A DNA stretch of 64,000 bases from an uncultured Candidatus Saccharibacteria bacterium (GTDB taxonomy: Bacteria; Patescibacteriota; Minisyncoccia; Phycocordibacterales; UBA5272). Shown piece after piece: positions 29,228-31,405 of the stretch. The position numbers and the translations under genes were made by a program. The notes under the pieces were generated by a model. That model was not told the DNA's origin, did no database searches, and saw nothing but the letters and a program-made list of their open reading frames with translations. Positions within the stretch are counted from its first letter, which is position 1. Each line of letters starts with the position of its first letter. The stretch covers positions 84,386-148,385 of the forward strand of contig CAZWMQ010000001.1 of assembly GCA_964635125.1 (NCBI GenBank), written 5' to 3'.

Positions 29228-31405
29228 ATGGCAGATAAAAAGAAATCATCTCATTACGATGCTTCGTCTATTCAAGTCTTAGAAGGATTAGAGCCGGTTC
29301 GTAAAAGACCAGGAATGTATATTGGTTCAACTGGGCCAGATGGATTACATCATTTAATTTGAGAAATATTCGACAACTCTCGTGATGAAGCTATGAATGG
29401 ATTCGCTAATAAGATTGAAGTAGCTATTTTACCTAATAATATTATTCGAGTTGTAGATAATGGGCGAGGTATTCCAACTGATATACATCCGAAGACGAAA
29501 GTTTCCGCTCTTGAAACTATCATGACCACTCTTCATGCTGGAGGAAAGTTCAACACTGAAGGATATAATGTTTCCGGAGGGCTTCACGGAGTAGGAGCAT
29601 CAGTCGTGAATGCTTTATCAGTATTTATGAAAGTGGAAGTTCATCGAGATAACAAATTATTTATTCAAGAATATTCTAAAGGTATTGCCAAAGCCAGAGT
29701 TAAAGAAGTAGCCAAGACTAAGTTTAATGGAACAGTGATAACCTTCAAGCCAGATATTGAGATCTTTAAAGAAGGGGTCGAGTATCAATGAAATAGAATA
29801 ATTACTCACCTAAGACAACAGGCTTATTTAGTAAAAGGATTACAAATTGATATTTTGGATTTACGAGATAGATATAAAGATGAATCGGGAGAGAAAGAGT
29901 CAATTAAGTTCGCTAATGACTTACAAGGAGTGAATTATTTAAAAGATAGTAGCGAAGTATTTGGCTTTAAGTCTTATTCATTTTTCTTTGAAGGAGGATT
30001 AAAGAGTTTAGTCGCACATTATAATTTAAATTATAAATTAACTAATAAGAATATTTTCTATGTTGATAAAGCGATCGATGAAGATAATAATAATGTTGGA
30101 GTAGAGATTGCTTTACAATATGTTGATGACATACAAAGTAGAATTGTAGCTTTTGCTAACAATATTCCTAATCCAGAAGGTGGAACTCATGTCTCAGGTT
30201 TTAAGACATCTCTAACTCGATTAATCAATTCTTATGCTCGTAAAAATAATATTTTAAAAGAGAAAGATGAGAATTTGACTGGAGATGATGTTCTTGAAGG
30301 ATTAACTGTGGTAATCTCGGTAAAATTACACGAGATACAATTTGAAGGACAGACTAAGGCTAAACTTGGATCAATGGAAGCACAGACTGCAGTTTCTTCA
30401 GTATTTACTCAATCTTTCGGAGACTTTTTAGAAGAGCATCCAGATGACGCTAAAGAAATAATTAATAAAGGAATCTTAGCTTTGAGAGCGAGAAAAGCCG
30501 CTAAAGCTGCCAAAGATTCAGTTTTAAGAAAAGGGGCACTTGAAGGCATGACTTTACCAGGAAAGTTAGCTGATTGCCAAAGTAATAAAGCTGAAGAGTC
30601 AGAATTATTTATTGTAGAGGGAGATTCAGCTGGCGGATCAGCCAAGATGGGACGAGATCGACGAACTCAAGCTATATTACCACTACGAGGTAAGATTTTA
30701 AATGTTGAGAGAGCAAGACTTGATAAGATGTTAGGATCAGAACAAGTTAAGAATTTAGTTTTAGCGATGGGAGCAGCAATTGGGGACACTTTTGATATTA
30801 AGAAGATGCGATATCATAAGATAATTATTGCGACCGATGCCGATGTGGATGGAGAACATATTCGAACTTTATTATTAACATTCTTTTTTAGATATTACAA
30901 AGAAGTAATTGATAATGGATTTATTTATATTGCTCAACCGCCATTATATAAGATTACTCAAGGTAAAAAGATTGACTATGCTTATAGCGATGCTGAGAAA
31001 TTAGCCTTAGTCGGTGATATTGATATTACGGAGGGAAATAGTGAAGAAGGCGATGGCGAAATCAATGAGAATGAAGGATTATCAGAGGATTTAAAAGAGG
31101 CAGGATTTGTAGATACTAATGACTCAGATTCCGCCAAGGCTTCGGCGAAGCGAAGTAAGAAGGAGGAAGTAGAGGTTAAAAAGACAGCGAAAGTTCGCAT
31201 TCAGCGATATAAGGGTCTTGGAGAAATGAATCCAGATGAACTCTGAGAGACTACGATGGATCCTAAGAATAGAGTTTTAAAACAAGTCTCCGCGAAAGAT
31301 GCCGAAGAAGCCGATAGAATCTTTGAAATGTTAATGGGTAGCGAAGTTGGTCCAAGAAAATCCTTCATCCAAACTTATGCGAAAGAGGCAGATATTGATT
31401 ATTAA
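29228..31405 (+). CDS. gyrB: DNA gyrase subunit B (725 aa; three UGA-Trp codons)
   Basis: GLHHLI-W-EIFDNS (compare B. subtilis HHLVWEIVDN), TOPRIM, and C-terminal [20 protein letters not shown]; three track ORFs share one frame. Confidence 0.95.

Follow-up and report, generated by a model that had tools for sequence, protein, structure and literature searches.

We analyzed a window of 64,000 nucleotides from an uncultured bacterium (positions 84,386 to 148,385 of contig CAZWMQ010000001.1), in which gyrB, thrS, pheT, and other genes carry in-frame TGA codons. Alignments to relatives indicate that UGA is decoded as tryptophan (Trp) in the genome to which the window belongs and that UAA and UAG are its sole terminators. 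Related genomes with the same reassignment stand beside others that keep the standard code, and this mosaic of codes within a single clade, that of the window, is the new result.

Window proteins with an X at each TGA were aligned to the translated DNA of relatives, and the subject codon was read at each X. The relatives compared were L001 to L006, which are GTDB species representatives with GyrB sequences 79 to 83% identical to that of the window, and L086. At 17 window TGA columns, comprising 82 cells, TGG-encoded Trp fills 73 cells, tyrosine (Tyr) 3, leucine (Leu) 3, serine (Ser) 2, and phenylalanine (Phe) 1; neither glycine (Gly) nor a gap is found in any cell. The window's own TGG columns have the same profile (Trp in 79 of 93 cells), and the 47 columns that are mostly TGG in the relatives are TGA at 16 and TGG at 20 positions in the window. 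None of the 356 columns with a majority of Gly in the relatives carries TGA in the window. Homologues in the PDB have W at 5 of the 9 TGA columns of GyrB and ThrRS and F, Y, V, Q, or L at the others.

The gyrB gene (29228 to 31405, + strand) comprises 725 codons with three in-frame TGA codons and no internal TAA or TAG; it matches GyrB in the PDB (E=4e-181) and has full-length orthologues that are 79 to 92% identical. Under translation table 11 it falls into four open reading frames (ORFs). A preliminary description of this DNA, made from the sequence alone, had pointed out that such adjoining ORFs lie in one frame with no TAA or TAG between them, and gyrB is indeed one continuous frame. The same description had placed TGA codons in the HHLI-x-EIFDN and LWETTMDP motifs of GyrB, both of which are confirmed, and had missed a third at codon 188. 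Codon 673 (31244 to 31246), the conserved Trp of LWETTMDP, is TGG-Trp in 80 of 80 genome loci examined and W in Escherichia coli GyrB (PDB), and it is TGA in the recoded loci L087 and L117. Codon 45 (29360 to 29362; HHLI-x-EIFDN) aligns with TGG-Trp in L001, L002, L005, L006, L086, and L087, with Ser in L003 and L004, and with Phe in E. coli. At codon 188 (29789 to 29791; VEYQ-x-NRI), TGG-Trp is found in L001 to L004, L086, and L087, Leu in L005 and L006, and Tyr in E. coli.

For thrS (33398 to 35155, − strand), three TGA codons had been recognized initially, and there are six, at codons 211, 255, 347, 382, 485, and 543 (first bases 34523, 34391, 34115, 34010, 33701, and 33527). At each of these codons, TGG-Trp is found in L001, L002, L005, and L006. 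Staphylococcus aureus ThrRS (PDB) has W at codons 211, 255, 382, and 485, with V and Q at the other two columns, which are variable. The pheT gene (25370 to 27817, + strand) holds two TGA codons where one had been seen before, at codons 7 and 638 (25388 and 27281), and both are TGG-Trp in L001 to L006; the PDB alignment of PheT starts downstream of codon 7. A further comparison comes from within the window: two tandem paralogues resembling type IV secretion system (T4SS) pilins (12833 to 14523, + strand; TGA at 13121 and 13942) swap TGA and TGG reciprocally at two homologous Trp columns (MLxGLGALFVLVTLWGII versus MLWGLIALFVMVSAxGII). The copy at 13609 to 14523 scores above the gathering cutoff of Pfam T4SS_pilin, and the copy at 12833 to 13591 scores below it. 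These paralogues are the last two of three small secreted T4SS-pilin-like proteins that lie in a row at 11872 to 14523 (+ strand), with weak matches to the same Pfam family.

Calling the whole window again with stops restricted to TAA and TAG, the approach proposed in the preliminary description, yielded 52 plausible genes, which end in TAA (40) or TAG (12) and never in TGA. The C-termini of 13 orthologue-supported genes match these TAA/TAG stops. Sense TGA occurs 47 times and TGG 66 times across the 52 genes, 18 of which have at least one TGA. TGA thus makes up 42% of Trp codons overall, 77% in a giant, rapidly evolving ORF at 39324 to 45362, and 33% elsewhere, shares that are consistent with an AT-driven drift from TGG to TGA that is still under way. 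The earlier impression that Trp is mostly encoded by TGG holds (58% of window Trp codons), as does the lack of TGA in gyrA, ftsH, and glyS: zero was counted in gyrA and ftsH, which have just one Trp codon each, and in a class II aminoacyl-tRNA synthetase gene (16560 to 17999) that is the putative GlyRS. Coverage by ORFs of at least 120 amino acids (aa) is 0.762 under code 11 and reaches 0.869 once TGA is treated as a sense codon; for the six GTDB relatives that are closest among the matches listed, the difference between the two is below 0.01. Together, the column counts and the TAA/TAG-only gene ends uphold the preliminary view that tables 11 and 25 do not apply and that table 4 fits.

The TGA codons are not assembly errors, because they are identical in Logan assemblies of two separate runs. 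The assembly of SRR11845619 matches the window at 100% identity over 19.9 kb and that of SRR11845634 does so over 12.1 kb, and the matched stretch covers four TGA codons in three genes, namely two in a solute-binding protein gene and the others in the two pilin-like genes. The solute-binding protein gene (10510 to 11868, + strand; two TGA codons) is called as three fragments in the independent Logan assemblies.

Distribution of recoding within the clade

The window organism belongs to the candidate phyla radiation (CPR) and has a tiny genome of ~29% GC; its place is in the class Paceibacteria (Minisyncoccia) of the Patescibacteria. Among the matches listed from GTDB and from a collection of 5.8 billion proteins, relatives of its GyrB are all Patescibacteria/Paceibacteria. 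The six GTDB species representatives are labelled Parcubacteria, Nomurabacteria, or Paceibacterota; some of the six also carry an automatic "Saccharibacteria" label, which we regard as erroneous. In NCBI, one relative has the name Ca. Elulimicrobiales, and Nomurabacteria, Kaiserbacteria, and Campbellbacteria are the names given to others. Synteny with relatives is kept over more than 20 kb (rpsB-tsf-...-pheS-pheT-...-gyrB-thrS-lemA-M48 peptidase), and the window has CPR-type content such as type IV pilus genes, T4SS-pilin-like proteins, and tmRNA with SmpB. The gene repertoire had been described as CPR-like and not Mollicute-like, which these relatives and this synteny support. The organism is present in runs SRR11845619, SRR11845633, and SRR11845634, and the sampling sites of its named relatives are a lake, a river, and a bioreactor. 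The GTDB scan for GyrB used peptide patterns in which W is encoded by TGG, a bias against recoded relatives, and is not used as evidence of their absence.

A protein search returned ~30 GyrB clusters at 76 to 92% identity, and DNA was taken for eight of them. Three members of the clade are recoded: the window, L087 (GyrB 92% identical to that of the window), and L117 (84%). The L117 locus has 30 TGA and 22 TGG codons in 20 genes, and its TGA columns are TGG-Trp in 114 of 125 cells of relatives. Sense TGA is absent from L001 to L006, L086, L115, L118, L119, and L120, with roughly 12 to 49 Trp codons each. These standard-code members include very close neighbors of the recoded ones. For example, L086 has a GyrB 90% identical to that of the window and 16 TGG codons, and L117 has close neighbors in L118 (GyrB 93%, 18 TGG) and L001 (GyrB 92%, 47 TGG). 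The nearest sampled standard-code relatives of the recoded tips thus lie at 90 to 93% GyrB identity. TGG counts in further standard-code members are 45 in L115, 21 in L119, and 49 in L120. The source data are SRR31968663 for L117 and SRR10090753 for L087 among the recoded loci, and SRR27197500 for L086, DRR438479 for L118, DRR438450 for L115, and CAZIHL01 for L001 among the standard-code ones. Only ~2 of 130 genes in the standard-code members end in TGA, a GT2 glycosyltransferase orthologue in L003 and a doubtful 90-aa ORF in L115; the codon was therefore already near-unassigned clade-wide.

In a neighbor-joining tree of eight concatenated markers, L117 groups with L001 (bootstrap 99) and this pair groups with L115 (77), and the window lies on a separate branch (99 to 100). 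Gene-by-gene identities agree with the tree: the GT2 glycosyltransferase of L117 is 87% identical to that of L001 versus 50% to that of the window. Third-position identity of gyrB at conserved residues is 65 to 69% in the closest recoded/standard pairs versus ~54 to 59% in distant pairs; the recoded/standard splits are at the level of species and not of strains. A single gain of the reassignment would need at least five complete reversions. Judging from these sequence comparisons, it is much more likely that UGA=Trp was gained at least twice, at shallow depth, in the window clade, or that the decoding machinery spread laterally among close relatives.

Four further loci (L007, L017, L032, and L076) had been candidates for recoding and were rejected, as shadow ORFs and read-through upstream accounted for their gap between code 4 and code 11 coverage. 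A scan of JGI data for GyrB with ...ELW(TGA)ETTM gave 0 matches, so members of the window clade in JGI are probably not recoded.

Relation to known recoded lineages

UGA=Trp has been reported twice from the same class. In April 2026, Nucleic Acids Research carried a description of the family JAKLIH01 (order UBA6257, class Minisyncoccia) based on four genomes, with a tRNA-UCA in two, release factor 2 (RF2) in none, and 0% UGA stops (PMC13092985). The gTranslate preprint of May 2026 lists 12 JAKLIH01 genomes, 10 genomes of the genus GCA-2747955 with three code 11 genomes nested, and one further Minisyncoccia genome, and found tRNA-Trp(UCA) in most of the recoded genomes and prfB in none (bioRxiv 10.64898/2026.05.24.727570). 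Parks and co-workers, in August 2026, counted only three earlier UGA=Trp phyla, with Actinomycetota as the fourth. The preliminary description had called a UGA=Trp lineage with a CPR-like repertoire notable; the lineage is real, but it has had precedent since 2026 (PMC13092985; bioRxiv 10.64898/2026.05.24.727570).

JAKLIH01 resembles the window organism in phylum, class, reassignment, 0% UGA stops, and small AT-rich genomes, and it has sister lineages with few UGA stops (4 to 10%), as does the window clade. In contrast to that clade, JAKLIH01 is a uniformly recoded family, and it probably belongs to a different GTDB order. Accessions of the JAKLIH01 clade are not among the window's GyrB neighbors in the matches listed, a negative that carries little weight given the bias of the W=TGG patterns. 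GCA-2747955 (o__UBA9983_A; f__GCA-2747955), possibly of the same order as the window, shares the reassignment and, like the window clade, mixes recoded and code 11 genomes in one shallow lineage. However, its type genome was recovered from a dolphin oral metagenome, and the hosts of its relatives are glass sponge and vent shrimp, habitats that differ from the lake, river, and bioreactor of the window's named relatives. It is described as sister to the other UBA9983 families, and no GCA-2747955 genome is among the window's GyrB neighbors in the matches listed. From these hints of habitat, topology, and neighbors, the window seems to lie outside both published recoded lineages. It probably represents a lineage without earlier description, although the general phenomenon was already published in 2026.

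A scan of JGI and ENA metagenomes for TGA at the Trp of GyrB HHLxWExFDN found 27 loci (L088 to L114). About ten of these form one or more recoded Paceibacteria-like clades with pheS-pheT-gyrB synteny (L088, L089, L092, L093, L097, L098, L102, L110, and L114). This group shares ~51% GyrB and 45 to 51% PheS identity with the window, whereas many standard-code Paceibacteria are closer (59 to 65%), and it falls on a different branch of the GyrB tree. Given this distance and the separate branch, at least one other recoded lineage is clearly independent of the window's; the JGI clade may be JAKLIH01. In one of its loci (L110, ~1 to 1400, − strand; Ga0074198_1002557), gyrB is broken by a long insertion that resembles an intein, follows HHLIxEIFDNS directly, and has an in-frame TGA of its own.

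Most other loci of the census are Mollicute-like, with gyrB-gyrA adjacency and largely animal-associated samples, and their gyrB genes have 5 to 7 TGA versus 0 to 1 TGG codons, compared with a TGA share of 42% overall in the window. The Mycoplasmatales and the insect and ciliate endosymbionts that use table 4 share UGA=Trp and AT-rich reduced genomes with the window organism, as well as the tRNA-Trp(UCA) without RF2 that is expected of it. They nevertheless belong to unrelated phyla, and the window differs from Mollicutes in its CPR-type genes (type IV pilus and T4SS-pilin-like) and in a pheS-pheT-gyrB order typical of Paceibacteria. Gracilibacteria, Absconditabacteria, and JAEDAM01 (table 25) are of the same phylum and have lost RF2; they have likewise reassigned UGA, but to Gly and not to Trp as in the window. 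Genera of the Eggerthellaceae (Microbial Genomics 2026, PMC13462651) offer another recent, shallow gain of UGA=Trp among code 11 relatives that already favor UAA, although these are Actinomycetota of the mammalian gut.

Further UGA-containing genes and neighboring loci

The most TGA-rich gene of the window is the giant ORF at 39324 to 45362 (+ strand), with 2,012 codons, a C-terminal membrane segment, and 17 TGA and 5 TGG codons; it has no orthologue in the compared relatives. L001, L115, and L117 lack this locus in the interval from the M48 peptidase to the membrane protein that comes next. Downstream, at 45980 to 54233 (+ strand), lie genes for a membrane protein (two TGA codons), a 371-aa ORF (one), two ABC exporters (one each), and a 525-aa ORF (two). 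Among the compared loci, only the gene at 45980 to 46510 has an orthologue, in L001, with W/TGG and F/TTT at the TGA columns. A 248-aa membrane protein and the GT2 glycosyltransferase (22351 to 24464, − strand) have one TGA each (23023 and 23238), both TGG-Trp in all five relatives with these genes (L001 to L003, L005, and L006). The single TGA (55681) of pilM (55288 to 56361, + strand; Pfam PilM_2) is TGG-Trp in L001 and L002. In tsaD of the window organism, 9 kb past the window end (L083, 7578 to 8798, − strand), two called fragments belong to a single ORF that contains two in-frame TGA codons, one of which aligns with what we take to be the Trp of "LAFAWDVP" in E. coli TsaD.

Between gyrB and thrS (31440 to 33396, + strand) are an R.Pab1-family restriction endonuclease (PF09522) and a methyltransferase-like ORF with an NPPY motif, no Pfam match, and one in-frame TGA. 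Most relatives have no such cassette, but in L119, which is not recoded, it occupies the same site (4215 to 6172). The window also encodes a tRNA-Ile(UAU) (54328 to 54402, + strand), as do L001 (20196 to 20270), L002 (18535 to 18609), and L006 (19974 to 20048), and its position next to tRNA-Ser(GGA) is conserved in relatives. AUA is read in most bacteria by a lysidine-modified CAU tRNA; given tRNA-Ile(UAU), the window clade may be without tilS.

Decoding machinery, alternative explanations, and significance

With ARAGORN and Rfam, no tRNA-Trp was detected in the window, in its Logan flanks (L081 to L085), or in most of L001 to L114, a few census loci excepted. A scan for the GGQ motif and tblastn with the Paceibacteria RF2 of L030 found no homologue of release factor 1 (RF1) or RF2 in ~76 kb, which is a fraction of the genome, and neither factor in the examined DNA of the window clade; in other loci, the same searches detected RF1 in many of the distant relatives, and L030 was the sole locus with RF2. 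The prfB-ftsE-ftsX neighborhood of L030 has no counterpart in the window. In many Paceibacteria (L010, L012, L014, and other distant relatives), prfA, which encodes RF1, lies just upstream of rpsB-tsf. An SLT-domain protein occupies that spot in the window clade, and prfA has therefore presumably been relocated elsewhere. From the established behavior of table 4 lineages and the two 2026 reports on the same class, we infer that the window organism has lost RF2 and has a tRNA-Trp that reads UGA.

Very probably, then, the window derives from a member of the Paceibacteria that translates UGA as Trp genome-wide (table 4), with UAA and UAG as its sole stops, and classical codon capture is the likeliest route. 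Under this scenario, UGA stops would already have fallen to ~1 to 2% of stops in a clade of ~27 to 33% GC, RF2 would have become dispensable and then been lost or inactivated, and a UGA-reading tRNA-Trp would have arisen, most likely with a UCA anticodon or alternatively as a CCA tRNA with relaxed decoding. AT-biased mutation would then have turned ~40% of TGG codons into TGA. Some observations weigh against this account. The window and ~12 kb of flanks yielded neither a tRNA-Trp, whatever its anticodon, nor a release factor gene, 30 of the 47 TGA codons are without an orthologous column in the compared loci (in the giant ORF, both ABC exporters, the solute-binding protein gene, and others), and the ORF at 37666 to 38076 has three TGA codons bunched near its C-terminus and could end at the first.

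The alternative that deserves most attention is dual or leaky decoding, in which RF2 is retained, a near-cognate tRNA-Trp(CCA), for instance one whose anticodon stem has only 4 bp, reads UGA as Trp, and some genes still end at UGA. Such a tRNA has been proposed to decode UGA in some bacteria, e.g., Ca. Zinderia; moreover, tRNA-UCA is found in just two of four JAKLIH01 genomes, and TGG still dominates among the window's Trp codons. We nonetheless consider leaky decoding unlikely: no orthologue-supported gene ends at TGA, the published recoded Minisyncoccia are without prfB, and ThrRS and GyrB need six and three successive UGA read-throughs, respectively, which competition by RF2 would make very inefficient. 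Decoding as Gly would have the appeal of a precedent in the same phylum, where table 25 was the sole UGA reassignment known before 2026. Its absence from every TGA cell, the lack of TGA at majority-Gly columns, and the presence of TGA at conserved Trp residues of GyrB and ThrRS make it scarcely credible.

The fragmented look of the genes under table 11 could also suggest that the TGA codons are real stops, in pseudogenes of a decaying genome or through sequencing or assembly errors. This is just as improbable, as the 47 "nonsense" codons are confined almost entirely to Trp columns, are not accompanied by frameshifts, and include no TAA or TAG. They hit essential single-copy genes, independent assemblies are identical, and two related organisms have the same pattern. 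Least plausible of all is that UGA, the codon for selenocysteine, encodes that residue here or is subject to isolated programmed read-through: the sites align with Trp and not with cysteine or selenocysteine, they are spread over 18 unrelated genes, and an Rfam scan found no selenocysteine insertion sequence (SECIS) or other element. Taken together, the TGA columns, the PDB homologues, the paralogue swap, and the TAA/TAG gene ends exclude table 11, table 25, pseudogenes, and selenocysteine. That the window clade is distinct from both published recoded lineages and captured UGA=Trp at least twice at species-level tips (the window with L087, and L117), after UGA stops had nearly been lost, has in our judgment an even chance of being correct.

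Annotation with table 11 is wrong for the window genome and its recoded relatives, splitting approximately a third of the window genes, including gyrB, thrS, and pheT, and this misannotation distorts completeness estimates, pangenomes, and protein databases. The window adds to the 2026 evidence for three genetic codes in Patescibacteria, and its added value is that recoding recurs at the tips of one clade in which UGA stops are already nearly gone. Stop codon reassignments are rare and the known ones are mostly old, whereas here recoded and standard species occur side by side. The clade would permit a direct test of codon capture, including whether RF2 loss came before or after the tRNA change, the rate of TGG to TGA replacement, and descent versus recombination. 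If the repeated capture at its tips is true, the clade would provide a natural before-and-after series of stop codon reassignment in bacteria other than obligate intracellular endosymbionts.

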